From Gammaproteobacteria bacterium (GTDB taxonomy: Bacteria > Pseudomonadota > Gammaproteobacteria > Steroidobacterales > Rariloculaceae): a stretch of 41,433 bases of DNA. The stretch covers positions 1 through 41,433 of the forward strand of contig JAURFX010000003.1 of assembly GCA_030834065.1 (NCBI GenBank), given 5' to 3'. Position 1 is the stretch's first letter; each line of letters starts with the position of its first letter. The notes under the pieces were generated by a model that was given only the letters and a program-made list of their open reading frames with translations, did not search any database and was not told the origin of the DNA. Position numbers and translations under genes: made by a program. This document shows positions 3,140 through 23,555 of this stretch, piece after piece.

Positions 3140-3835
3140 ATGGGCGAAATTAAAGTTTTAAATCCTATTCCTCGCGTTTCTTCATTAAAAGAAGTCGTCA
3201 TTAACAGTATTCGTGATGCAATTATCTCGGGCTATTTCAAGCCTGGTGAAAAATTAATTGAGAAGCGTTTAACTGAAGACCTAGGGGTATCAAGAACTAT
3301 TCTGCGTGAGGCGATAAGTCATCTTAGTGCCGAAGGAATAGTCAAAGTAATACCTAATAAAGGTCCAATTGTTAGGAATTTTGAGGAAAAAGATATTTTT
3401 AATCTCTACCAGATTAGGATGGCTCTGCTTGGCTTAGCAACCAGACAATTTACTCAAAATCTCTCCGAGAATACTCTTAATAAATTAGAAAAAAAATTAG
3501 AAAAAATTAAATTTGCCCATAAAAACTTTGATGCTGAAAAGCTAATCAAAGCCAAGAATGATTTTTATCAATACATTGTAGATGAGTCAGGTAATTCAGA
3601 TCTTATTCTTCTTATCCGCTCACTCGAAAGCCAGCTTTCAATGATGCGAAGTCTAGGTATTAAGCACCCAAAACGCTCTAGTACAAGATCAAAAATCAGT
3701 GTCGAAAATCTACAGGCTTCATTTAACATGATTCAAGCAGGTAACTATGCTGAAGCAGAAAGAATGATCAGAGCAGAAACACTGCAAGCTCAAAAGGAAA
3801 TCATTTCACTTTTTAAAGAGCAACAAAAAACCTAA
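3140..3835 (+). CDS. GntR family transcriptional regulator (FCD domain, FadR subfamily)
   Basis: wHTH IRDAIISGYFKPGEKLIEKRLTEDLGVSRTILREAI...EGIV...PNKG, followed by a helical FCD-like C-terminus (SGNSDL). Confidence 0.92.
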   Translation: MGEIKVLNPIPRVSSLKEVVINSIRDAIISGYFKPGEKLIEKRLTEDLGVSRTILREAISHLSAEGIVKVIPNKGPIVRNFEEKDIFNLYQIRMALLGLATRQFTQNLSENTLNKLEKKLEKIKFAHKNFDAEKLIKAKNDFYQYIVDESGNSDLILLIRSLESQLSMMRSLGIKHPKRSSTRSKISVENLQASFNMIQAGNYAEAERMIRAETLQAQKEIISLFKEQQKT

Positions 3836-10458: not shown

Positions 10459-10983
10459 ATACTCAAAGACCAAAAAAATCAATTTGGTATAGTCTCAATA
10501 GCCCTGCATTGGATTGTAGCGATTGCAATACTTATGATACTCCTCTCAGGTAGAGAATTAGCCAACGGAAACTCTAATCTATCCTATGATGAAATTTTAC
10601 TTGTACATGCTCGAGTAGCATATTTAGTATTGCCTTTTTTTCTTTTCAGGTTCCATTGGAGGCTAAGGCAGGGCTATCCAAAATTTACAATTGCAAAGAA
10701 GTTGAGTCATATTATTCCTCCTTTTCAATACCTTATCTTGATAAGTATATTTTTTAGCTATTTATCCTGCTACTTCATCCTAAATATAGATACAAATTTA
10801 TGGTATTTAGAGCAGGAGAATTTAGCGAGCATGAACTCGGAAATATCGATTCATACCTTTGTTGCGAAGACTGCCTTTTTATTAATAATCATCCATATCA
10901 TAGCTGCAAGCATACAGATCCTATTTGCAAAGAATGTAAATGCACGTAGGATGATATCATTGCCTGATAATGAAAAAACTTAG
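10459..10983 (+). CDS. cytochrome b561 (YceJ/CybB-like) di-heme membrane protein
   Basis: The frame is open upstream of the called ATG (10534) and gives LKDQKNQFGIVSIALHWIVA, a typical N-terminus with the first His. Further His residues in VHARV, IHTF, IHIIAA; C-terminal RRMI. The start appears to be ATA at 10459. Confidence 0.75.
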   Translation: MLKDQKNQFGIVSIALHWIVAIAILMILLSGRELANGNSNLSYDEILLVHARVAYLVLPFFLFRFHWRLRQGYPKFTIAKKLSHIIPPFQYLILISIFFSYLSCYFILNIDTNLWYLEQENLASMNSEISIHTFVAKTAFLLIIIHIIAASIQILFAKNVNARRMISLPDNEKT

Positions 10984-11452
10984 TTATTGCATCACCTATT
11001 TACTTTTACTATTCTCAACCTCTCTTGCGGCTGAGAAATTAAATTACTTTATAGCCTATACCCAGGAGGAAAATGGCATTGTAATTGAAAATTGGGATGG
11101 TTATGAGCCAACGCTAGGATTAAATTTTTCTCAAATCATCGATTATTGCACCTCTAGTCATTCTAATCATTCAATACCTACTTTTGAGGCCTTTGATTTG
11201 TCTAATCTTCAGATCAATTGCTATGACCGTCATGGGAATGAAATCAATGAAGTACCATTAATTCTAAGTGTAGAGAGCCTGGCAGATATTTTTAACCTGA
11301 ATGGGACAGAGATTTATTTTACTGATAAAAACTATCCTTATATCAGATTATGGGCAGAGTGCATTTATGAAAGATCCGATGGATCAAGATTTACTTTTCC
11401 TATAATTTTACTTAATAATAAAGGCTTTATTTCAAAAATTATCCAACCATGA
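10970..11452 (+). CDS. hypothetical secreted protein
   Basis: 160-aa ORF with a Sec signal peptide (MKKLS...SLAA), overlapping both neighbours. No family recognised. Confidence 0.6.
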   Translation: MKKLSYCITYLLLLFSTSLAAEKLNYFIAYTQEENGIVIENWDGYEPTLGLNFSQIIDYCTSSHSNHSIPTFEAFDLSNLQINCYDRHGNEINEVPLILSVESLADIFNLNGTEIYFTDKNYPYIRLWAECIYERSDGSRFTFPIILLNNKGFISKIIQP

Positions 11453-12444
11453 TACCTGAGTCTGTGCTTGAGAGTTATGACCTTGGCCATTGTTCAATAA
11501 AGACAATCAATACAGGATTGATCAATAAAACCTGGAAATTATCTGCAGCGTCGGGTGATTTTATTTTTCAAAAGATAAATCCTATTTTTCCAGAACAAAT
11601 TCACGAATCGATTCATAAAATCACAAAGATACTTTTGCAAGACGACATTGGCTCTGTTGAAATAATAAGGACTAAAAATGGAGAACTGATCCATAAAGAA
11701 AATGATGAAATTTGGAGGGTTACGAAATATATCTCGGGTGATAATTTTGAGATTACCCCAGATGCTGATTATGCGTTTAGTCTTGGGAAGGGATTGGCTA
11801 AAATGCAAAAATGCCTTCGTAATGTAAAGGTTGGAGTTCCTTTAAGAACAATCAAAGAGACCGATAGGTGCTATGAAGATTTAATTTCTCTTATAAAATT
11901 AAGTCAAGATCACTCGCAAATTAAAACTATTCAAAAGTATGCTGAAGAAATAAGTAAAGAGTATGCGGCCCTTGATCAAAAGTTAGAAATTAATAATAGG
12001 CAAATGATCCATGGGGATCCCAAAATATCTAATGCTATATTTATAAACGGATCACCTGACATTAAAGCTTGGATAGATTTTGATACCATCGCTTTTCAAA
12101 ATCCCTATGACGAAGTTGGAGATGCTATTCGGTCTTGGTGTAATCCAGTTCATGAATCTGATACGGAGAGTCAGCTGGATCAAACATTACTTAAAGCTAC
12201 GCTTGAAGGCATTGTATATTTTGATATCTATAAAGAAATAAACAGTAAATCAGTTATTCAATTTTACACAAAAAAAATAACGCTTCGTTTGGCAATGCGT
12301 TTCTTAACAGATGCAATGACAGAGAATTACTTTTTTTGGGATAAAAGCAAATACAATACACTCTCGGAGCAAAATATTGCAAGAACGCGCGCGCAACTCA
12401 ATTTACTCAAATCAATTGAGTCTGCATTTATGACACTTCTGTGA
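11449..12444 (+). CDS. aminoglycoside phosphotransferase / N-acetylhexosamine-1-kinase-like phosphotransferase
   Basis: GLINKTW, FIFQKIN..F, Brenner motif HGDPKISN, WIDFDT, GDAIRSWCN, RFLTD...YF. Confidence 0.85.
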   Translation: MIPESVLESYDLGHCSIKTINTGLINKTWKLSAASGDFIFQKINPIFPEQIHESIHKITKILLQDDIGSVEIIRTKNGELIHKENDEIWRVTKYISGDNFEITPDADYAFSLGKGLAKMQKCLRNVKVGVPLRTIKETDRCYEDLISLIKLSQDHSQIKTIQKYAEEISKEYAALDQKLEINNRQMIHGDPKISNAIFINGSPDIKAWIDFDTIAFQNPYDEVGDAIRSWCNPVHESDTESQLDQTLLKATLEGIVYFDIYKEINSKSVIQFYTKKITLRLAMRFLTDAMTENYFFWDKSKYNTLSEQNIARTRAQLNLLKSIESAFMTLL

Positions 12445-12472
12445 CAGTAAAAAACTAAAATTCTTATATATT
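12431..12472 (+). promoter_or_regulatory. hemA promoter with TGACA-N6-TGACA direct repeat (HemR-box-like)
   Basis: TGACActtctgTGACA at 12431-12446 has an 11-bp period typical of OmpR/PhoB-family boxes. The second repeat reads GTGACA (-35-like), followed by a TATATA/TATATT -10-like element at 12465-12472. Confidence 0.75.
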
Positions 12473-12481
12473 CAGTGCTCT

Positions 12482-13795
12482 ATGATAAACAATTATCAAA
12501 TTGTTGGTATAACTTGGCGCGATCATCTTCAAGAGGAGATTGAAAAGATCTCATTAAACGAAGAACAGGCGCTTAAAGCCCTGCAGTTATTACAAAAAAA
12601 ATATCAAGTTGAAGAGTGTGCGTATCTTAAAACCTGTAACAGAATTGAGCTCTTTATCTATACAGAAGATTTATCTATACATAAAAACATTAGAAAGATT
12701 TGGCGCGAAATCATAGGTCAATTTCGAATAGCAAAATCTGAAAGCATTCAATTTAGATCGTGGAGAGGAGAAGGAGCGTTTGAGCATCTTTTTATGGTTT
12801 CCTCTGGTCTCGATTCTGCCTCTTTAGGAGAAAGTGAAATTTTATATCAGCTAAAGAAAACAAAAGAATTTGCTCAAAAAAATCACTTGATTGCATCAGA
12901 AATTAACTTCCTGTTTGAGGAGTCATTCAAAGTTGCTGCACAGATTAAGAGAAACACATTACTTAACTCGGGAAAGCAATCCTTATCTGAAATCGCAATA
13001 AATATTTTTATAAAACCAAATCTACCTGACAAAGATTTTAAAATAGGTCTGATTGGCACATCCCCTGTAATTATAAATGCACTCAAGTCACTTCTAGAAA
13101 GAGAATTTAAGCCTACTTTAATTAATAGAACGCTCAAAAATATACAAGATCTAAAAGATAAGTACCCTATTAAGATGATCAGCTTAAATGATCTAAATTC
13201 TGGCAATCATCATTTCGATGTAATCTTATCTGCCACAAGTGCAACAGAGAAAATTATCAATGAAAAATCACTAAAAGCCATATTTATCAATCAAACAAAA
13301 ATTTATATCGATTTAGCAAGCACTCCTGACGTCTCATCAGCTGTATGCAAAAGAAATAACATAAAATATTACTCCTTAGATGATGTGATTGAGAAGGCAA
13401 AATACACGCATCAAATACGTCAGGCAGAAGTAGCAAATGCAAGAGAAATTATTGATAGCTATTTGATTAATTTAAATCAAAAGATTAATGATAAGAAATA
13501 CAACTCAATTTATTCTGCAATACAAAAAAGATATCAATACACCGCCTCAGAGGGCATTAAAAGATTAATTAAAAAAAATGCATTAAAACTTGATCAAAAT
13601 GCTATAAATGAAATTGATATTTGGTGTTCAGCCCTTGCAAGAAGATTTGCTCACATTCCAACCTTAGGCATAAAAGGCTTACTGAATAATGGTCCAGACG
13701 GTTCTGTTGAGGCATTCATTGAGGGTCTTGATGAAAAGTTTCAAACTGAACTAAAGCTCGCAATACTAGAAACCAAAGGCGGCAATCTTGATTAA
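12482..13795 (+). CDS. hemA: glutamyl-tRNA reductase (divergent)
   Basis: TCNRIE catalytic Cys, AFEHLF.VSSGLDS..LGESEI..Q, NRT, SATSA, IDLA. First gene of the hem operon. Confidence 0.88.
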   Translation: MINNYQIVGITWRDHLQEEIEKISLNEEQALKALQLLQKKYQVEECAYLKTCNRIELFIYTEDLSIHKNIRKIWREIIGQFRIAKSESIQFRSWRGEGAFEHLFMVSSGLDSASLGESEILYQLKKTKEFAQKNHLIASEINFLFEESFKVAAQIKRNTLLNSGKQSLSEIAINIFIKPNLPDKDFKIGLIGTSPVIINALKSLLEREFKPTLINRTLKNIQDLKDKYPIKMISLNDLNSGNHHFDVILSATSATEKIINEKSLKAIFINQTKIYIDLASTPDVSSAVCKRNNIKYYSLDDVIEKAKYTHQIRQAEVANAREIIDSYLINLNQKINDKKYNSIYSAIQKRYQYTASEGIKRLIKKNALKLDQNAINEIDIWCSALARRFAHIPTLGIKGLLNNGPDGSVEAFIEGLDEKFQTELKLAILETKGGNLD

Positions 13796-14684
13796 GATAG
13801 GAACCAGAGCCTCGCATTTAGCAAGAACTCAAGCACTTTTAGTTGAGAAAAAACTAAATGATCTTGGTATAGAAACTAAAATAGTCATCATCACAACAGA
13901 AGGTGATAAGAATTTAAATAAGAACTTTTCTGAAATAGGTTCTCAGGGAATATTTGTCAAAGAACTAGAACAGTCATTATTAAAACAAGATATTCATATT
14001 GCTGTACATTCAGCCAAAGACCTTCCAATCCAGATAGATAAAAAATTACAAATTGGCGCCTACCTTAAAAGAGAAGATCCTGCAGATATACTACTTAGCT
14101 ATCATGAGATAAATGAAAATGTATTAAAAAGTAAAAAATTAACTATTGGTACTTCATCAATTCGAAGATCTAAATGGATTAGCCATTTTTATCCTCATAT
14201 CATTGTTGAAGGTCTAAGAGGCAATGTACCCACAAGAATAAAAGCATTAGAAAATATTGATGTAATTATATTAGCTAAAGCAGGCTTGAACCGCTTAGAT
14301 AAGTCTCCTCTGTCTGATAAGCCGAATATCGATTTTAATAAATTTCATATGCATCGACTTGATCCTAATCAATTTGTATCTGCACCTGGTCAAGGTGCCA
14401 TAGCTATTGAATGCTTAAAAGCAAGCAAAGATATACTTGATTCCCTCGATAGAATTAACCATAAAGAAACCCAGACTTGTATCGATCATGAAAGGATAAT
14501 GTTAGGTCACTTAAGTGGTGGTTGCAATGTTCCGCTTGGAGTTTATGTCAAAATGATCAATCAAAATAATTCTTTCGAGATGCATATTGCACATGCATTA
14601 AATAACAAATTTATTAAGAAAACGTTTCAATACAATAAGATAAATCAAGTTGAAGAAAAAATATTACAAGAATTAAAATCATGA
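13788..14684 (+). CDS. hemC: hydroxymethylbilane synthase (porphobilinogen deaminase)
   Basis: IKIGTRAS.LA..Q, T.GD, GIFVKELE, AVHSAKDLP, GTSS.RR, LRGNV.TR, APGQGA, GGCNVPLG. TTG start. Confidence 0.95.
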   Translation: MIKIGTRASHLARTQALLVEKKLNDLGIETKIVIITTEGDKNLNKNFSEIGSQGIFVKELEQSLLKQDIHIAVHSAKDLPIQIDKKLQIGAYLKREDPADILLSYHEINENVLKSKKLTIGTSSIRRSKWISHFYPHIIVEGLRGNVPTRIKALENIDVIILAKAGLNRLDKSPLSDKPNIDFNKFHMHRLDPNQFVSAPGQGAIAIECLKASKDILDSLDRINHKETQTCIDHERIMLGHLSGGCNVPLGVYVKMINQNNSFEMHIAHALNNKFIKKTFQYNKINQVEEKILQELKS

Positions 14685-15403
14685 ACATCAGAGGTAAAAA
14701 AATTCTTATCACCAGAGATAACGAAGGAAATAAAGATTGGCAAGAGAAATTGCGCTCTCTGGGCGCCTTAGTAAAGACTTTGGACTGTATTAGTATTCAT
14801 GAATTTGATATGAATAAAGAGGAGTTAGCTGAGATAAGAAGAATAATCGAAGCTTCACAATATGTGATTTGGACTTCTGCGAGAGGCGTTTTGTATTCAA
14901 GAAAATTTTTTAATGGACAGATCGCTTCGAAGCTCTGTGCCGTAGGTATTCCTACCGCTAAGGAGATAAAAAAATACTTTGGTAATCCTTATTTGATTAG
15001 CCAAGAGATGAATGCAAGAGGACTCAGTCAAATTATTATTAAAAATGAAGACCTTAAAAATAAAAAAATCTTATTACTCTTGGCCATAAATGCCTCAGAT
15101 TTTCTAGAAAAGGAGCTTCAAAATGCAGGCGCCAATGTAAAACGAATTAATATTTATGAAACCAGACCGATAATGCTTAATGATCCAATTTTATTAAGCT
15201 CACTAGATGTTAATCATATTTTTGTTGCTAGCCCAAGTGCAGCGAAGGGCCTAAAAAATAATGTAATTTTCGACTGTTCAGTCAACGTTTACCCTATTGG
15301 AATAACTACAAAAAAAACTTTAGATGAGTATCAAATTAAAACTCAGCCTATACCAAAATACACAGGTCTCGAAGGTCTAATAAATCAATTAAATAATAAT
15401 TAA
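14681..15403 (+). CDS. hemD: uroporphyrinogen-III synthase
   Basis: GKKILITR, WTSARGV, AVG..TA, YET, ASPSA, IG.TT; directly after hemC. Confidence 0.88.
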   Translation: MNIRGKKILITRDNEGNKDWQEKLRSLGALVKTLDCISIHEFDMNKEELAEIRRIIEASQYVIWTSARGVLYSRKFFNGQIASKLCAVGIPTAKEIKKYFGNPYLISQEMNARGLSQIIIKNEDLKNKKILLLLAINASDFLEKELQNAGANVKRINIYETRPIMLNDPILLSSLDVNHIFVASPSAAKGLKNNVIFDCSVNVYPIGITTKKTLDEYQIKTQPIPKYTGLEGLINQLNNN

Positions 15404-15405
15404 CT

Positions 15406-16374
15406 ATGGGTAGAGAATATAGAATCAATCAGGAAATCAGGGATAGCTTAGCTGAAACTTCATTATCGCGCTCAGACCTTATCATGCCCTACTTTGTAAA
15501 TGACTCAAGTCATTCTATACAGATTTCTGCAATGCCTGGAATATTAAATCATTCAATTGCTTCTCTAATTCCAGCTGTTCAAGAGCAGTTAAAATTTGGT
15601 ATCGATTCCATACTTCTCTTCGGAAGTACAGAAAATCAAAAAAATAAAACTAATGACGGTAGCTATGCTTATCACGAAAAAGGCATTACACAGGCAGCGG
15701 TACGCGCTTTAAAAAAAGAATTTGGGAATGACCTTACTATTATCACCGATGTGTGTATATGCTCATACACAAATCATGGTCATTGTGGTGTCACTCAGGG
15801 AGAAAATATTCTTAACGATGAGACCCTTCCTATCCTTGCAAAAATTGCAAAAAGTCACGCAGATGCTGGAGCAGATATCATTTCCCCGTCAGATATGATG
15901 GATAGCAGAGTGCAATTTATCTCAGATTATTTAAAAGAAGAGATTAATCAAAAGATTCCATTATTTAGTTATGCCGCAAAATTTGCCTCTTCTTACTATG
16001 GGCCCTTTAGAGAGGCAGCAGATTCATCGCCGAAATTTGGTGATAGAAAGAGCTATCAAATGGATTACAGAAATTCTAATGAGGCCATGAGCGAGATCAA
16101 GGAAGACCTCGATCAAGGTGCTGATGGAATTATTTTTAAACCTGCTTTAGCTTATTTGGATATCTTAGCTAGGGCAAGCAAAAAATTTGATACTAGAAAG
16201 TTGGCTTATAATGTCTCTGGTGAGTATTCAATGGTAAAGGCAGCGGGCATGAAGGGATGGATTAATGAGAAAGAAATTATTATAGAAAATCTTTTTTGCA
16301 TGAAGAGAGCAGGCGCGACTGACATTATTACTTATCATGCATTAGAAGTTGCAAAAAATAATTGGATCGAATAG
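15406..16374 (+). CDS. hemB: porphobilinogen synthase (ALA dehydratase), Zn-type
   Basis: DVCICSYTNHGHCG Cys triad, SPSDMMD, KFASSYYGPFREAA, GDRKSYQMD, FKPAL.YLD, AYNVSGEY. Confidence 0.97.
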   Translation: MGREYRINQEIRDSLAETSLSRSDLIMPYFVNDSSHSIQISAMPGILNHSIASLIPAVQEQLKFGIDSILLFGSTENQKNKTNDGSYAYHEKGITQAAVRALKKEFGNDLTIITDVCICSYTNHGHCGVTQGENILNDETLPILAKIAKSHADAGADIISPSDMMDSRVQFISDYLKEEINQKIPLFSYAAKFASSYYGPFREAADSSPKFGDRKSYQMDYRNSNEAMSEIKEDLDQGADGIIFKPALAYLDILARASKKFDTRKLAYNVSGEYSMVKAAGMKGWINEKEIIIENLFCMKRAGATDIITYHALEVAKNNWIE

Positions 16375-16376
16375 CA

Positions 16377-17666
16377 ATGCAGATAGAAAAATCTAAAAAA
16401 TTATATGAGCAAGCGTGTAAAGTTATTCCTGCAGGTGTCAGCTCACCGGTAAGGGCCTTCAAAGCTGTGGGTGGCAATCCAATCTACATGAGGTCTGGTC
16501 AGGGTCCCTTTATTAATGATGTGGATGGAAATCAATACCTTGACTTTGTTATGTCATGGGGCCCACTTATACATGGTCATGCCAATCAAAAAATTATTCA
16601 AAAAATAATTGAAGCCGCTCATAATGGGACTTCTTTTGGCACACCTTGTGAGGATGAATTAAACCTTGCAAGGTTTATTGTTGATTCATATAAATCCATA
16701 GATCAAGTACGTTTTGTCTCATCGGGGACAGAAGCAGTCATGAGCGCGATAAGACTGGCTAGAGGTTTCACAGGTCGAGATCTTATTATTAAGTTTGATG
16801 GTTGTTATCATGGACATGTCGATCCCTTGTTGGTTTCTGCCGGTTCTGGCTTGGTTACGCTAGGGAATCCTTCATCTCTGGGAATTCCACACGAAGTTTC
16901 TAAGCAAACTATCTCTCTTCCGCTAAATCGTATTGAACAAGTTAAGAGAGCATTTATTGATTTTAAAGGTCAAATTGCAGCTGTAATCATTGAGCCAATT
17001 CCTGCTAATAACGGCTTATTGCTTCAAACAAAAGAATTTATCTCAGGTCTTAGGGAATTATGTGATGAAAATCATGCATTGTTAATATTTGATGAAGTTA
17101 TCAGCGGCTTTAGGGTCGCTCAGGGAGGGTCCCCAGAGATATTTAACATCAATCCTGATCTTGTAACATTTGGCAAAGTAATTGGAGGAGGGCTGCCCGC
17201 CGGCGCATTTGGCGCTAATAGAGAGATAATGAATCACATTGCACCAAATGGAGGAGTTTACCAAGCAGGGACTTTATCTGGAAATCCATTAGCAATGGCT
17301 GCTGGCTTTGCAAGTCTAAAACTCCTTCAGGATGAAAATAGTTGGGAATATCTTGAAAACTTGGGTTCTTATCTAGAGAAAAAAGTTAAACTCCTGGGCT
17401 TTAATGAAAAATTTAATGTTAGTTTTGTCCGACAAGGTTCCATTTTTTGGTTTGCACTTGATACAAATATACCACCGATTAGATCAGAGGATATTAATGC
17501 TAAATCAGAGAAAAAATACGCTTCGATATTTAATGGCTTACTAAAAAATAAAATATATATCGCTCCCAGTATGTATGAAGTTGGATTTCTATCCACATCA
17601 CACAATAAAGAACATGTAGATCACTTTATTCAATCTTTATATCACTCAATGGAATGTATAAGTTAA
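16377..17666 (+). CDS. hemL: glutamate-1-semialdehyde 2,1-aminomutase
   Basis: PAGVSSPVRAF, SWGPLIHGH, SGTEAVMSAIRLARG, FDGCYHGH, FDEVISGFR, FGKVIGGGLP, YQAGTLSGNP. ATG at 16377 is preferred over TTG at 16362. Confidence 0.97.
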   Translation: MQIEKSKKLYEQACKVIPAGVSSPVRAFKAVGGNPIYMRSGQGPFINDVDGNQYLDFVMSWGPLIHGHANQKIIQKIIEAAHNGTSFGTPCEDELNLARFIVDSYKSIDQVRFVSSGTEAVMSAIRLARGFTGRDLIIKFDGCYHGHVDPLLVSAGSGLVTLGNPSSLGIPHEVSKQTISLPLNRIEQVKRAFIDFKGQIAAVIIEPIPANNGLLLQTKEFISGLRELCDENHALLIFDEVISGFRVAQGGSPEIFNINPDLVTFGKVIGGGLPAGAFGANREIMNHIAPNGGVYQAGTLSGNPLAMAAGFASLKLLQDENSWEYLENLGSYLEKKVKLLGFNEKFNVSFVRQGSIFWFALDTNIPPIRSEDINAKSEKKYASIFNGLLKNKIYIAPSMYEVGFLSTSHNKEHVDHFIQSLYHSMECIS

Positions 17667-18733
17667 GCCAGAGAAATACCTTTAGACTGGAAATTACTTT
17701 TGTAGTTCTTCTGGTGCTTACTTTTGGTCAAGTAATTTGGTGGATTTATGACCAGATACAGTACACAGAGAACATCAATAGTAGCTTACTAAGACAATAC
17801 GAAATTGAAGCAGAACTTCTTGAGAGTCAAAATTCCTCGGACCCTTTAAATATTCGAGACTTCCCTTACCTAACCGAGATCAACGGTGAGATTATGATTA
17901 GTGCAGATGCGCTCGCTAATATCGAGGCCGAGAGAAGCTCAAGAATAAACCGTTATTTTTGGGAAGGAAGTTTCTTTATTGTGGTTATATCGCTATGTAT
18001 TTTAATCATATTCAAAACCATCAGTAAGGATCGAGCTTTGAATCGAAGGCAGCAAAACTTTATTGCCTCTATAAGTCATGAATTAAAAACCCCACTCACC
18101 AGTATGCGTCTTGCCGCCGAGACGATTGGAATAAATAATCAGGATGAGAGATCAATCAGAATGGTAAATCGTATCCTCTCCGAGGGTGATAGATTACTTC
18201 ATTTGATCGAGAATCTACTTGATGCTAATAAGCTTGATGAAAAGAAATTCCAAGTTCAAGTCTCTCAATTTGCTATAAATGGCCTTATTGAAAAAGTTTT
18301 AAATGGTCTTTTTCTTAGAGCTGAAGAATGTGGAATTGAAATTCAAACAATGATTAATACTGATAAGACAATTAATAATGATCCTTTAATTGTGTCCATT
18401 ATCTTGAGAAATATTATTGAAAATGCTGTAAAAGCCTGCGAACAGAGCAATCAAAAGCTTATCAGAGTAGTCGCAAATAGGACTGATGACGGAATTGCAG
18501 TAGAAGTGATAGATTCTGGTATTGGTATCCAAAAGGAAGAAAAAGAAAATATCTTTGATAAGTTTTACCGAGTGGGAGATGAAAAATTACGTACAACTTC
18601 AGGTAGCGGACTTGGTCTCTATATTTGCAGAAAATTAGCAAAACTAACAAATATCTCCATAGAAGTTAGTAGTGAGGGTATGAATCAAGGATCTACCTTT
18701 AAAGTTTCAATAAGGGATATTTCTAATGTCTAA
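17654..18733 (+). CDS. membrane sensor histidine kinase (HisKA), HemK(Leptospira HemKR)-like by position
   Basis: Two TM segments flank a short extracytoplasmic region; H-box SHELKTPL, N-box NIIENAVK, D.GIGI, IFDKFYR, GSGLGL. Confidence 0.92.
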   Translation: MYKLSQRNTFRLEITFVVLLVLTFGQVIWWIYDQIQYTENINSSLLRQYEIEAELLESQNSSDPLNIRDFPYLTEINGEIMISADALANIEAERSSRINRYFWEGSFFIVVISLCILIIFKTISKDRALNRRQQNFIASISHELKTPLTSMRLAAETIGINNQDERSIRMVNRILSEGDRLLHLIENLLDANKLDEKKFQVQVSQFAINGLIEKVLNGLFLRAEECGIEIQTMINTDKTINNDPLIVSIILRNIIENAVKACEQSNQKLIRVVANRTDDGIAVEVIDSGIGIQKEEKENIFDKFYRVGDEKLRTTSGSGLGLYICRKLAKLTNISIEVSSEGMNQGSTFKVSIRDISNV

Positions 18734-19439
18734 TATCTTGGTAGTAGATGATGAAAAGGTCTTGGGCGAAAGTATTAAAGATGCTTTAGCCTCAGAGGGA
18801 TATGAAGTCAAGATCGCATCGAATGGACAAATTGGTTTTGACTTGATCTCTTCTGAGCCTTTTGATCTCATCATATTAGATGTCATGATGCCAGAAATAA
18901 ATGGGATTGATCTTTGCAAGAAAGTCAGAGAAATAAATGTACTTACTCCAATTTTATTTTTGACGGTCAATAATGACCCTGAAGATAGAATATTGGGACT
19001 TGAAGCTGGGGGTGACGATTACCTTGGTAAGCCATTTCACTTAAAAGAATTATTACTTAGAACCAGAAAACTAATTCAAAGAACCCAGTGGTATGCTAGA
19101 ACCAACGATAGTTTTGCATTTGAAGACATTTATATTGATTTTTCAAGTTACCAAATTGAATCTTGGGATAAAAAAATATATAACCTGACCCAGAAGGAAG
19201 CCATGATCCTAAAACTTCTTATTGAAAATGAGGGGGCAACGGTATCTCGCGAAGATATCCTAGAGAAAATTTGGGGTTATGAATCTTATCCCTCTACTCG
19301 AACAATAGATAACTTTATCGTTCGCTTAAGAAAAAGAATCGAACGTAATCCAGAGCAACCTACTCATCTTCATACTATAAGAGGCGTTGGTTATAAATTT
19401 ACTAAAAATCCATTAGAGAATAATGATCCTGAACTATGA
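18726..19439 (+). CDS. OmpR/PhoB-family response regulator, HemR-like by position
   Basis: ILVVDDE, LDVMMPEING, GGDDYLGKPF, wHTH LTQKE...TRTIDNFIVRLRK.IE...TIRGVGY. Confidence 0.93.
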   Translation: MSNILVVDDEKVLGESIKDALASEGYEVKIASNGQIGFDLISSEPFDLIILDVMMPEINGIDLCKKVREINVLTPILFLTVNNDPEDRILGLEAGGDDYLGKPFHLKELLLRTRKLIQRTQWYARTNDSFAFEDIYIDFSSYQIESWDKKIYNLTQKEAMILKLLIENEGATVSREDILEKIWGYESYPSTRTIDNFIVRLRKRIERNPEQPTHLHTIRGVGYKFTKNPLENNDPEL

Positions 19440-20449
19440 ATAATAAAAGACTTTTAAATGCCCTTAACCTCAAAGAAAATGATCATAGACCTATTTGGAT
19501 TATGCGACAAGCGGGTAGATACCTACCTGAATACAGGAAGGTAAGGGAAAAGTATAGCTTTAGAGAGGTCTCAGAAACACCCGAACTTGCAGCAGAGGTT
19601 ACTCTTCAGCCACTCAAAAGATTTGAATTCGATGCCTCTATCATATTTGCAGATATCATTACTCCACTTAAGGCTATGAATATAAATTTTGATTTTAGTC
19701 CTGGCCCTATCATTGAAAATCCAATCAATAACCCAAGACAAATTGATGCCCTACCTGATAAATTTTATGAAGTTGCCCCAGAGGTGCAGGCATCTTTAAA
19801 ATTAGTTAAATCTGAATTAAAGTCCCACCAAACACTTATTGGTTTTGGTGGTGCACCCTGGACCTTAGCTGCCTACCTTATCCAAGGAAAAGGACAAAAA
19901 GACTTTCCCGCAATAAGGCGCTTTGCGTCTGAACACCCTGAGTCTCTTCAGAGCCTTTTAACTAAACTCAGCGATCTAAGTATCCAGTACTTTAAAGAAC
20001 AAATTGATTCTGGAGCAGAGGTTATTCAAATTTTTGACTCTTGGGCTGGTTTGCTTTCTATCAAGGATTGGCAAACATGGATACAACCCCATTTACTTCA
20101 TATTGTTAGCGCTCTTAAGGCATCTAATATCCCAGTAATTCTATTTCTACAAAATGCAAATCATTTGGTTGAGTATTACTGCGAACTTCCAATCAGTGGA
20201 ATCGGTGTCGATTGGAGAGTTGATTTATCAAAACTGCAATCAAAATTAAAAGATCATATAGCTGTTCAGGGCAACTTAGACCCAGCTATTCTGCTTGCAG
20301 GACCAGAAATTACAAAAAAGTATGCTATAAATTTACTTAACAGTATCGATCCTAAGGGGCATATCATGAATTTAGGTCATGGTATTTTACCTAACACTCC
20401 CATCGAGAGTGTTCATGCACTAATTGAAGTAATTAAAAATGAGAGATAA
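19436..20449 (+). CDS. hemE: uroporphyrinogen decarboxylase
   Basis: PIWIMRQAGRYLPEY, IIFADI, GFGGAPWTLA.Y, QIFDSW, VQGNLDP, NLGHGI.P. Confidence 0.97.
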   Translation: MNNKRLLNALNLKENDHRPIWIMRQAGRYLPEYRKVREKYSFREVSETPELAAEVTLQPLKRFEFDASIIFADIITPLKAMNINFDFSPGPIIENPINNPRQIDALPDKFYEVAPEVQASLKLVKSELKSHQTLIGFGGAPWTLAAYLIQGKGQKDFPAIRRFASEHPESLQSLLTKLSDLSIQYFKEQIDSGAEVIQIFDSWAGLLSIKDWQTWIQPHLLHIVSALKASNIPVILFLQNANHLVEYYCELPISGIGVDWRVDLSKLQSKLKDHIAVQGNLDPAILLAGPEITKKYAINLLNSIDPKGHIMNLGHGILPNTPIESVHALIEVIKNER

Positions 20450-20452
20450 GAC

Positions 20453-21166
20453 ATGAAAATTTCAGAAACTACAGGACAAGTTGATCTAAGTGAAAAAGGT
20501 CTCAATCAAGGCCAATTGATCTCTCTTGACCGAAGATTATTTATGAAATTTAATGCCTTCTCAGGGCGAATTGACGAAAAAGAAATTATTAAAAAATGTA
20601 GTGAAATTAATGGTGTTATTTATAGAGACATTAATGATCCAAATGGTATCGGTCTTCTTATTCTTAGCGAAGACCCTGCCGAATTTATCAAGATCAATCA
20701 AGAAGTCTTATCTTTGCCACCATTCTCTGATCTTCAGCATAAGCATGAATTTGATATGCTTGGTAGGACTTACTCGATTGGATATGAAAATGATCTCGAG
20801 GAAGTTCTTATAAATAAACCCAAAAATAAAATAAAGGATCCAAATTTTAAATGGTGTGTATGGTACCCACTAAGACGTGAAAAAAAGTTTTATGTACTTC
20901 CAGCTGACAAGCAAAAAAAGATCCTTGGTGAGCATGGCAATCTTGCTAAGCGCTATGGCTATGCTGGTCTTGCCGTGGATATCCGTCTAGCCTGTCATGG
21001 TCTTGATAAACAAGATAATGATTTTGTAATTGGGCTGCTTGGGCCTGATCTCCATCCCTTATCTGCAGTCGTTCAAGAGATGCGACAAACGGAGCAAACA
21101 GCTCACTACCTAGAAAGTTTAGGTCCCTTTTTTATTGGCTTAAAAATTTGGGAGAATATCTCATAA
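20453..21166 (+). CDS. chdC: chlorite dismutase-family protein, probable coproheme decarboxylase (ChdC/HemQ)
   Basis: WYPLRR (YPxxK/R catalytic-Tyr motif), ILGEHG proximal His, GLD..D.DFVI, VQEMR, GPFFIG. Located between hemE and the ferrochelatase. Confidence 0.75.
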   Translation: MKISETTGQVDLSEKGLNQGQLISLDRRLFMKFNAFSGRIDEKEIIKKCSEINGVIYRDINDPNGIGLLILSEDPAEFIKINQEVLSLPPFSDLQHKHEFDMLGRTYSIGYENDLEEVLINKPKNKIKDPNFKWCVWYPLRREKKFYVLPADKQKKILGEHGNLAKRYGYAGLAVDIRLACHGLDKQDNDFVIGLLGPDLHPLSAVVQEMRQTEQTAHYLESLGPFFIGLKIWENIS

Positions 21167-22200
21167 TGCATGAGTATGATTCTCTCTTGATTCTCTCTTT
21201 TGGTGGGCCCGAGGGTAAAGAAGATGTCTTGCCATTTCTAAGAAATGTACTTAAAGGTATTCCCGTCAAAGATGAAACCTATGAAGAAATTCAAGAGCGT
21301 TATGATCTATTTGATGGAGTATCACCTATCAATGCCAATACTAGGCTATTCATCGATACCTTATCAAAAGCCCTCAAATTAAAAAGAATCATGCTCCCCA
21401 TATACTGGGGTAATCGAAATTGGCATCCAATGCTCAGTGATACGATGCAAAAAATGAAAGAGGATGGAAGAAAAAAAACACTTGTATTTGTTACAAGTAT
21501 TTTTAGTTCTTATAGCGGATGCAGAAAATACCGCGAGGATCTCTATGAATCAAGCGCAACCATTGAGCATTCGATAGAGTTCGATAAAATCAGAAATGGG
21601 TATAATCATCCTGGCTTTATTAAGGGAATAGCAAGTTGCATTAATGAAACAATCAAAAATAACAATCTGAGCAAAGAAACCCAAGTATTTTTTACCGCAC
21701 ATAGTTTGCCAATCTCAATGGCAGAAAAAACAGAATACAAAAATCAACTCCTTGATAGCTGTCAATTGGTCGCAAATGAACTTGAGTTAAAAAATTGGAA
21801 GCTATGCTACCAGAGTAACAACGCATCTTATGGAAATAAATGGTTAGAGCCAACGATTGAAGATGAAATAGTAGCTATGGGCCAAGCACCTACAAAAGAT
21901 TGCATTGTAATGCCTATCGGATTTGTATGTGATCATATGGAAGTTGTACTTGATCTTGATATTGATGCAAAAAATATTGCTTTGCAGAATGATGTAAACC
22001 TTTACAGGGCGCCAACACTTGGTATTAACGAAAACTTTATTGATATGGTGGTAGATCTTATTGACGAAAGAATGCAAAAAAGAGAAGAAAAAAAGTTTCT
22101 AGGCGAAAGAGGCCCTAATCACAATCAATGTCCAATAAACTGCTGCCTCTCAGGTAGGCCAGGAAATCCAAAGCCTTCACTATGTGGTGAAGCTAGCTAA
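21166..22200 (+). CDS. hemH: ferrochelatase, actinobacterial-type (probable coproporphyrin ferrochelatase CpfC) with C-terminal Cys cluster
   Basis: YD.LL.LSFGGPEG..DV.PFL.NV, GVSPIN, PIYWGNRNWHP, SSYSGCR.YRED, FTAHSLP, YQS, WLEP, PIGFVCDHMEV..DLD, C-terminal CPINCC. TAATG overlap with the upstream stop; GGAG RBS. Confidence 0.93.
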   Translation: MHEYDSLLILSFGGPEGKEDVLPFLRNVLKGIPVKDETYEEIQERYDLFDGVSPINANTRLFIDTLSKALKLKRIMLPIYWGNRNWHPMLSDTMQKMKEDGRKKTLVFVTSIFSSYSGCRKYREDLYESSATIEHSIEFDKIRNGYNHPGFIKGIASCINETIKNNNLSKETQVFFTAHSLPISMAEKTEYKNQLLDSCQLVANELELKNWKLCYQSNNASYGNKWLEPTIEDEIVAMGQAPTKDCIVMPIGFVCDHMEVVLDLDIDAKNIALQNDVNLYRAPTLGINENFIDMVVDLIDERMQKREEKKFLGERGPNHNQCPINCCLSGRPGNPKPSLCGEAS

Positions 22201-22202
22201 AA

Positions 22203-23555
22203 ATGCCTGAAGTATTTGATGTGATTATCATTGGTGCAGGTTTAAGCGGTCTCACCACAACAAAATATCTAAAAGATGCAAATATAAGTACGTTAACACT
22301 TGAGGCATCTGATGTCCCAGGCGGTCGACTAAGATCTATTGAAAATAAAGATAATTCTTTTGAATTTGGAGGTACTTATATCGGACATCATTATCATCGC
22401 TTTCAAAATTTAGCCAAAGAACTCAATTTAACTACTATCGATGTCACTCCATTGATTAGCTTTTTTAAAAAACAAGATCTAGTCATAAATAAACAATTAA
22501 TTCATCAAGATGACTGGGAGAATCATAAGGAAAATACCTTGGATAAAGATCTAAAATCTATCTTGCCCTGGAATCTACATCGCATAATTTTAGAAAAATA
22601 TAACCCTTATAATTCACCTGAAGCATGTCTTACTGAAGGAACTAATGATCAATCGATGAGAGATTGGCTTCAAAGTCTAGGCTTTGATAGCCAACAAATA
22701 AAATATATTTATGGCATGAATTTAAGTTATGGGACTGATGCCGATTCAATTTCCTCGCTGCAATTAATGCATCGAGCGAGTTTTTCTAAAAGACAAAAAT
22801 CAGAGTCTAAAGTTATAGGTTTCACCTTGCTTGAAGGTATGAATGAGCTAGCCAATCGGTATATCAATCATTTTAATTTAAATATATTATTCAAAAATCG
22901 AGTCAATAAGATCGTTAAAGAAAAAGGTCTTTTTTCAGTATCCTGTGAAAATGGAAATGAGTTTAGTGCAGAAAGACTTGTCCTTACTTGTGCCCCATCT
23001 ACACTTAAAAATATAACATTTGATGATTATTCAAAAGAACAAAGGATTCAGTTTGCCTCAGAATTGCAATCCCAACCCATGTTCCAAATTCATTTTAAGC
23101 ATAAAAAGAATTTCTGGGAGCAAGACGGATTCTCTCCCGCTATATTCTCTAATGAATACCTTGGGATGTGCTATCCAGTTAGAAATAAAGTTGATCCCGA
23201 GGAGATCATTGGTTTTACTGCATGGGTTATGGGAAAAAAGGCATTAGATCTTATCAAGCTCTCTCAAAAAGATGCTTGCTCAGTTATCATAAATAATCTA
23301 CAGGAGATAAGACCAAGCATAAAAAATGCAATTGAATTAACTCATCTTAATGCCTGGTCCCATGAAAAAGATTTTTTAGGAGGGTGGACGTATTTCAAGC
23401 CAAACCAGTTCTTAATGTGGCATAAGCTTTTACAGTCAGAGAAAAGTAATATCTTCTTTTCAGGAGAGCATACTTCTATTAGCTCGAGGGGAATTGAGGG
23501 CGCTATTGAGTCTGGAGAGAAGACTGCTAGAGAACTTTTAAATTCTATTCATTAA
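22203..23555 (+). CDS. flavin monoamine oxidase family FAD-dependent oxidoreductase
   Basis: DVIIIGAGLSGL, LEA.D..GGR, EFGGTYI, IFFSGEHT...GIEGAIESG (MAO/LAAO-type C-terminus). Confidence 0.85.
   Translation: MPEVFDVIIIGAGLSGLTTTKYLKDANISTLTLEASDVPGGRLRSIENKDNSFEFGGTYIGHHYHRFQNLAKELNLTTIDVTPLISFFKKQDLVINKQLIHQDDWENHKENTLDKDLKSILPWNLHRIILEKYNPYNSPEACLTEGTNDQSMRDWLQSLGFDSQQIKYIYGMNLSYGTDADSISSLQLMHRASFSKRQKSESKVIGFTLLEGMNELANRYINHFNLNILFKNRVNKIVKEKGLFSVSCENGNEFSAERLVLTCAPSTLKNITFDDYSKEQRIQFASELQSQPMFQIHFKHKKNFWEQDGFSPAIFSNEYLGMCYPVRNKVDPEEIIGFTAWVMGKKALDLIKLSQKDACSVIINNLQEIRPSIKNAIELTHLNAWSHEKDFLGGWTYFKPNQFLMWHKLLQSEKSNIFFSGEHTSISSRGIEGAIESGEKTARELLNSIH

Follow-up and report, generated by a model that had tools for sequence, protein, structure and literature searches.

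The question raised by this locus is what a regulatory DNA repeat known from spirochaetes does in front of the heme genes of a gammaproteobacterium. The DNA concerned, hereafter the window, is a stretch of 41,433 nucleotides (nt) from contig JAURFX010000003.1 (GenBank assembly GCA_030834065.1) of a member of the Rariloculaceae, in which the direct repeat TGACA-N6-TGACA, the so-called hem-box, lies just ahead of hemA, the first gene of a heme operon that also encodes a response regulator (positions 18726-19439). The answer that we hold to be very probable, judging from the sequences of the window and its relatives, is that the box would be an operator of the hemA promoter bound by that regulator. 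The primary paper on this motif in Leptospira is reportedly that of Morero et al. (2014). According to passages of PMC11426443, phosphorylated HemR of Leptospira biflexa binds the hem-box TGACA[N6]TGACA upstream of heme-metabolism genes, and has been proposed as an activator of the hem biosynthesis genes and a repressor of hmuO; the system is turned off by 5-aminolevulinic acid, which switches HemK to a phosphatase. A preliminary description of the window had given the motif as that of Leptospira HemR, and HemR as an activator of the hemA operon; the motif agrees with the wording of those passages, and the activation appears in them as a proposal for the hem biosynthesis genes.

The box itself is read directly from the DNA. 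At 12431-12446 of the plus strand the window carries TGACActtctgTGACA, an exact TGACA-N6-TGACA with half-sites at 12431-12435 and 12442-12446 separated by cttctg, that is, a direct repeat with a period of 11 base pairs (bp), the usual type of site for dimers of the OmpR/PhoB family. From its end to the ATG of hemA (12482) there are 35 nt (12447-12481), and on its other side the box spans the final four codons (M-T-L-L) and the stop of an APH-like phosphotransferase gene, the open reading frame at 11449-12444, whose TGA (12442-12444) falls within the second TGACA. Both the position ahead of hemA and the overlap with the preceding gene are as first described. The frequency of the motif is another matter. 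The window contains a single exact match, where 100 shuffles gave a mean of 0.11 and at least one match in 9 of 100, and the 1.17-Mb genome contains two, against one for a reversed-pattern control, the other exact match lying within the obg coding sequence on the opposite strand. In a genome of this size, chance alone would account for the mere presence of the box, and the argument must therefore rest on placement and conservation. It is the placement of the box, and above all its conservation in relatives, that is non-random; in this form the earlier claim that the site is no accident stands, although its appeal to the rarity of the motif does not.

Conservation was followed in two partly overlapping sets of hemA loci: 30 loci of the same family of the GTDB taxonomy, the window and its sister genome included, and 80 loci retrieved through peptide patterns of the HemA clade (80 of 488 candidates), two of them without upstream DNA. 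Merged, these sets comprise 108 loci and 80 unique segments of 101 nt, with guanine-plus-cytosine (GC) contents from 0.29 to 0.77. Of the 30 family loci, 29 have an exact box no more than 300 nt ahead of hemA and the remaining one shows one mismatch; in the second set the box is exact in 77 of the 78 loci with upstream DNA, and one more has a single mismatch; the conservation upstream of hemA in orthologous operons on which the preliminary description had made its reading depend is thus found. Among the 80 unique sequences the information content is highest at the two half-sites and their immediate flanks and near zero elsewhere, and column statistics yield the extended consensus c-G-TGACA-C-t-n-C-c-G-TGACA-a-(a/t). 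The pentamers are fixed in these columns by the anchoring of the alignment, but the flanking G and the positions after each half-site are not: a G precedes the half-sites in 66 and 73 of the 80 sequences, respectively, and C or A follows. In all 108 loci TGACA is read in the direction of transcription.

The coding sequence that overlaps the box in the window does not account for this conservation. In 26 of the 30 family loci hemA is preceded by an APH-like gene, whose end overlaps the box only in the window and the sister genome; outside the window's genus the APH-like homology stops tens to about 150 nt ahead of the box (40-150 nt in most cases), and in family loci of lower GC content no open frame of at least 100 amino acids runs across it. 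Because the box is mostly intergenic in the relatives, its conservation is not explained by coding constraint, and the overlap with the APH-like gene is, to judge from these comparisons, a local compaction of the spacer and not the cause of the conservation.

The geometry of the promoter is conserved as well. Across the 80 unique sequences the motif TAnnnT starts 19, 20 or 21 nt after the box in 27, 10 and 7 cases, respectively (44 of 80 in total), and at any other single offset in no more than three, and TATnnn or TGnTAT stands at that same place in most of the others. In the window both TATATA (12465-12470) and TATATT (12467-12472) occur there, of which only TATATT, on the plus strand 20 nt after the box, is in the conserved register, and this would be the probable -10 hexamer. 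A simple consensus scan of 12200-12700 detected neither a canonical sigma-70 promoter (16-18-nt spacer) nor a terminator. The proximal half-site overlaps the -35 region without being a properly spaced -35 hexamer. The original proposal that the second half of the box occupies the -35 position ahead of a TATATA/TATATT -10 is therefore kept for the overlap and for TATATT, whose register is conserved, and abandoned for a properly spaced hexamer and for TATATA, which is off register. Transcription is predicted to start at about 12478-12480, 6-8 nt past the -10, leaving a leader of 2-4 nt; relative to this predicted start the box would span about -48 to -33, with its centre near -40.5. Read from its sequence, the layout is that of an activator-dependent, class-II-type promoter.

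Between the probable -10 and the hemA ATG there are 9 nt only (12473-12481), with no Shine-Dalgarno sequence visible. The distance from the box to the start codon is 31-35 nt in 34 loci, including the window, 51-62 nt in 62, and longer in 12, bearing in mind that the start codons of the relatives were assigned by homology and that some may be off. The short spacing in 34 of the 108 loci implies an almost leaderless transcript, and so suggests that hemA may be translated from a leaderless or near-leaderless mRNA in them.

The box co-occurs with the regulator encoded in the operon in nearly all of the genomes searched for it. An ortholog 53-58% identical to the regulator of the window was found in 24 of 24 family genomes; in 18 of these it follows hemA at a distance of 4.9-5.7 kb, both genes sharing contig and strand, and the assemblies of the other six are fragmented or gave no hemA match. 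Of five further genomes with the same type of HemA that were searched, four contain a regulator 52-56% identical; orthologs range from 51 to 58% across all comparisons. The arrangement of the operon varies among these four, with layouts such as box-hemA-regulator-hemE-hemQ-like-hemH and box-hemA-kinase-regulator-hemE-hemQ-like-hemH. Another of them has the layout of the window with a one-mismatch box, and in one more an operon with kinase, regulator, hemE, hemQ-like gene and hemH lies 1.4 Mb from the boxed hemA; in this genome the box accompanies hemA and not the regulator gene. The best conserved part of the regulator is its DNA-binding domain, where 0.69 of the positions are identical to those of the window, versus 0.56 in the receiver domain. 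Residues P189-S-T-R-T, D195-N-F-I, R200 and R202 are invariant in 23 regulator sequences, and the probable recognition helix is almost invariant. The preliminary designation of the box as the cognate site of the regulator at 18726-19439 finds support in this co-occurrence and in the conservation of the box, from which we infer that the protein binds it. A search of the ESM Atlas for look-alikes of the regulator returned generic response-regulator clusters only.

The negative controls came from other families of the order and from the wider class. In 16 genomes from other families of the order, one of which (G039) is unpublished, no regulator match above 40% identity was obtained; six of the 16 have a HemA match of a different type (23-26% identity), and none of these six hemA loci has a box, even with one mismatch, near hemA. 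No regulator match at E≤1e-60 was obtained in any of 400 other genomes sampled across the class, a search in which no more than seven candidates were scored for the genomes listed. One of the six control loci (L133) shows the usual hemA-prfA arrangement, which, together with the divergence of HemA in the window's family, suggests that the whole heme cluster of this family may have been acquired or replaced. The Obg marker, which has too little resolving power to place genomes G077-G081, is 48-50% identical in them, versus 52-55% in the family and in other families of the order. The same control locus, from genome G033 of another family, also contains an exact TGACA-N6-TGACA at 3196-3211, within a TTTCCTGACA repeat 5 kb from hemA, which sits between an unrelated kinase-regulator pair (regulator 35% identical) and a small divergent open reading frame; a related regulator may use a similar half-site there.

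The resemblance to the Leptospira system goes beyond the operator, whose core is the same TGACA-N6-TGACA upstream of hemA. In both cases an OmpR/PhoB-type regulator is paired with a small membrane kinase without a cytoplasmic sensor domain, and in L. interrogans the two genes are reported in PMC2266917 to lie between hemL and hemE of hemACDBLENYH, as in the window. The one L. biflexa box printed in PMC11426443 (TGACAGTACTGTGACA) also has a G before its second half. There are differences too: the host here is a gammaproteobacterium and that of HemKR a spirochaete, the operon ends here with hemE, a hemQ-like gene, hemH and a hemY-like gene instead of the hemE-N-Y-H order reported for L. interrogans in PMC2266917, and the N-terminal part that precedes the DHp domain is longer in this kinase, at about 122 residues, than in HemK, where it has 80. 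Among the relevant literature matches for hem-box, HemKR and Hklep, which do not cover the 2014 motif paper, only Leptospira papers were found. The likeness could have arisen by common descent with transfer, or the two lineages may have converged on one operator. Other OmpR-type regulators acting on direct repeats at heme-related genes are HssRS and ChrSA of Gram-positive bacteria; those systems control efflux or detoxification, not a biosynthesis operon, and their operators differ. The regulator of the window reaches no NCBIfam model of any named regulator, and it and the kinase fall under every NCBIfam equivalog cut-off.

The preliminary description had also looked towards boxes at heme uptake, heme oxygenase and TonB genes, and none came to light in five family genomes and in the window's own. 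Exact boxes in the five family genomes number 2-5 each, versus 0-4 for reversed controls, and none stands beside a heme or iron gene recognized by Pfam; an HmuO-type heme oxygenase (PF01126) was not found in these five genomes either. The window's genome has 49 boxes when up to one mismatch is allowed, of which three lie within 150 nt before the start of an open reading frame, namely those of hemA, a sigma-54 activator and mraZ, the last two with one mismatch each. Compared with the dual HemKR regulon, in which hem activation is combined with hmuO repression and exbBD/TonB uptake, the repressor and uptake arms were not found in the genomes searched, and the hem operon looks like the sole conserved target of the regulator that would bind the box.

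The most likely pathway would start with a head-to-tail dimer of the phosphorylated OmpR/PhoB-type regulator (18726-19439) occupying the box. Bound at about -40.5, over the -35 region, it would recruit RNA polymerase by class-II or PhoB-like activation, since the promoter lacks a properly spaced -35 hexamer. The regulator would in this way drive the 11 genes from hemA to the hemY-like gene. Positive autoregulation of the circuit would follow, as the kinase and regulator genes belong to this operon themselves. Finally, the membrane kinase would presumably reset the circuit on a signal from the pathway, a role played by 5-aminolevulinic acid in Leptospira.

Several observations weigh against this proposal. 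In the L. biflexa hemKR deletion, as reported in passages of PMC11426443, the hemA operon was not significantly changed, and therefore other controls act there too. The loci compared here were picked through one HemA clade, and kin are non-independent, so that the counts given above overstate the number of independent observations. Genome G078, the fifth of the further genomes searched and one whose completeness is not given, has the box and no regulator match at E≤1e-45. RNA contigs from metatranscriptomes are too sparse over the promoter to show where transcripts start. The receiver domain of the regulator is not specially similar to PDB entry 4q7e, which we take to be the receiver domain of Leptospira HemR: the match, in which only that domain is comparable, scores 77 bits and ranks 43rd in the table, and 4q7e is not among the 60 chains listed for the family profile. 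Moreover, the genome encodes a further regulator of the same type beside PhoR, a PhoB-like protein, and the complementary strand of the E. coli pho-box core shows this pentamer repeat too.

It is this identity that makes PhoB the main rival, as reverse complementation turns the hem-box core into the TGTCA repeat of the pho-box core, which also has an 11-bp period. In E. coli the pho box is bound by a tandem winged-helix PhoB dimer and overlaps or replaces the -35 of an activator-dependent promoter, as the box does here, so that the repeat ahead of hemA could be a pho-box-like site of the PhoB-like protein, or of another of the three OmpR-type regulators of the genome, and heme synthesis would be tied to phosphate. 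The PhoB-like gene (contig C45) scores 291.8 bits against the cut-off of 296.2 of TIGR02154, its neighbour PhoR passing its own cut-off, and the hem-operon regulator scores 162.4 bits against the same PhoB model, without reaching the equivalog. However, the orientation of TGACA is uniform with respect to transcription in every locus and opposite to that of the E. coli pho box relative to the -10; in this genus the repeat ahead of pstS is TGTAAT-AAAA-ATGTAAC when read with transcription; and the flanks differ, as a reversed pho box would have A before and G after the pentamer. Among the genomes of the order examined, which were scored for the hem regulator, HemA and the box, the box also goes with the hem regulator and its HemA type, and no box lies near hemA at the six hemA loci of other families. 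Altogether, control by PhoB or another of these regulators seems improbable.

Plain promoter DNA, in which GTGACA would act as a near-consensus -35 with a fortuitous copy upstream and no dedicated regulator, agrees with the five of six positions shared with TTGACA and with the 18-nt spacer to TATATA, and must nevertheless be considered very improbable, for the distal pentamer, 11 bp further up, varies no more than the proximal one, the conserved -10 register 19-21 nt after the box is too far for GTGACA to serve as -35, the consensus scan gave no sigma-70 promoter in the region, and several relatives have TGnTAT elements resembling an extended -10, which need no -35. To a chance match, or to a coding constraint imposed by the C-terminal end of the APH-like protein, we attach next to no likelihood: the two exact matches in the genome against one reversed control, and the four codons and stop shared with the upstream gene, would be expected under it, but not the same exact box at the same promoter in nearly all of the related loci, which as 80 unique sequences are not assembly duplicates, nor its persistence in the family loci where the APH-like homology ends well short of it or, at lower GC content, no long frame covers it. 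An additional observation concerns the TGTAATAAAAATGTAAC direct repeat just upstream of pstS, present in the window's genome (G000, contig C45, L169) and in G001 (contig C29, L168); AT-rich and running in the opposite orientation to the hem-box, it probably represents a pho box.

Taking the box as the operator of the hem-operon regulator, the data support the presence of a hem-box/HemKR-type circuit in an unexpected lineage, the kind of circuit itself being already known, and would extend a heme-synthesis switch described in Leptospira to an unrelated uncultured family. Whether HemKR and the hem-box, until now regarded as peculiar to Leptospira, constitute a transferable heme-control module, common to spirochaetes and to an uncultured family of aquatic and soil gammaproteobacteria, and present here as a minimal, self-contained and autoregulated operon with the box as its sole target, is a proposal to which we would give roughly even chances. 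If true, the module would be accompanied within the family by a HemA of non-gammaproteobacterial type and by coproporphyrin-type genes (hemQ-like, hemH and hemY-like), and the streamlined 1.2-Mb genus would have compacted the operator into the end of the preceding gene, with an hemA mRNA almost devoid of leader. From the 80 natural promoter variants one obtains a longer operator consensus (cGTGACAc, 11-bp period) and a constant spacing from operator to -10, which could guide footprinting and mutagenesis in Leptospira too. In this way a genome of about 1.2 Mb would maintain the complete heme pathway under regulation, as one operon governed by a single operator. The cluster also raises the question of how the family acquired a heme cluster unlike those of its gammaproteobacterial neighbours.

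The operon is tightly packed, with 11 open reading frames that mostly overlap or abut, all on the plus strand, assigned by Pfam, NCBIfam and open reading frame lists; the gene downstream of its end is convergent. The order is hemA (glutamyl-tRNA reductase, 12482-13795; GlutR_N, Shikimate_DH and GlutR_dimer), hemC (13788-14684; Porphobil_deam), hemD (14681-15403; HEM4), hemB (15406-16374; ALAD), hemL (16362-17666; Aminotran_3), the sensor histidine kinase (17654-18733; HisKA and HATPase_c), the OmpR/PhoB-type response regulator proposed to bind the box (18726-19439; Response_reg and Trans_reg_C), hemE (19436-20449), a chlorite-dismutase-like, HemQ-like gene (20453-21166), hemH (21148-22200) and a HemY-like amine oxidase (22203-23555), the last four assigned with Pfam and NCBIfam. 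The HemA of the window scores 196 bits, against the NCBIfam cut-off of 209.55 for TIGR01035, and the HemQ-like match is partial (Pfam residues 128-230) and far under the NCBIfam cut-off. The kinase shows two predicted membrane segments (residues ~10-32 and ~100-122), judged by eye from hydrophobic stretches of its translation, which flank a loop of about 65 residues; HisKA comes directly after the second segment, followed by HATPase_c, and Pfam gives no HAMP or PAS domain, an architecture like that described for HemK in PMC11426443, whose N-terminus is short and periplasmic/transmembrane. The last four genes (19436-23555) are an unusual set for a gammaproteobacterium, and correspond to what we take to be the coproporphyrin-dependent heme route typical of Gram-positive bacteria.

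On the upstream side, the APH-like gene (11449-12444, plus strand; Pfam APH), whose end lies inside the box, is preceded by a gene for a cytochrome b561-like protein (10534-10983) and by one for an unknown protein (10970-11452), which overlap. Since the scan found no terminator ahead of hemA, read-through from the side of the APH-like gene into the hem operon is possible.

The host is known as a metagenome-assembled genome of 1.17 Mb in 104 contigs, 82.6% complete and with a GC content of 0.38. This genome is streamlined, other members of the family reaching 5.9 Mb and a GC content of 0.77, and its only OmpR-type winged-helix regulators are the PhoB-like protein beside PhoR, the hem regulator and one resembling those of sortase systems. 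In the three metatranscriptome runs mentioned above for their sparse coverage, the RNA contigs amount to six short pieces within the APH-like gene and hemA, and 12367-13154 is uncovered. Near-identical DNA occurs in estuary, marine, lagoon and freshwater metagenome runs from several studies, and one of these runs (X1) spans the box and shows no difference at it.

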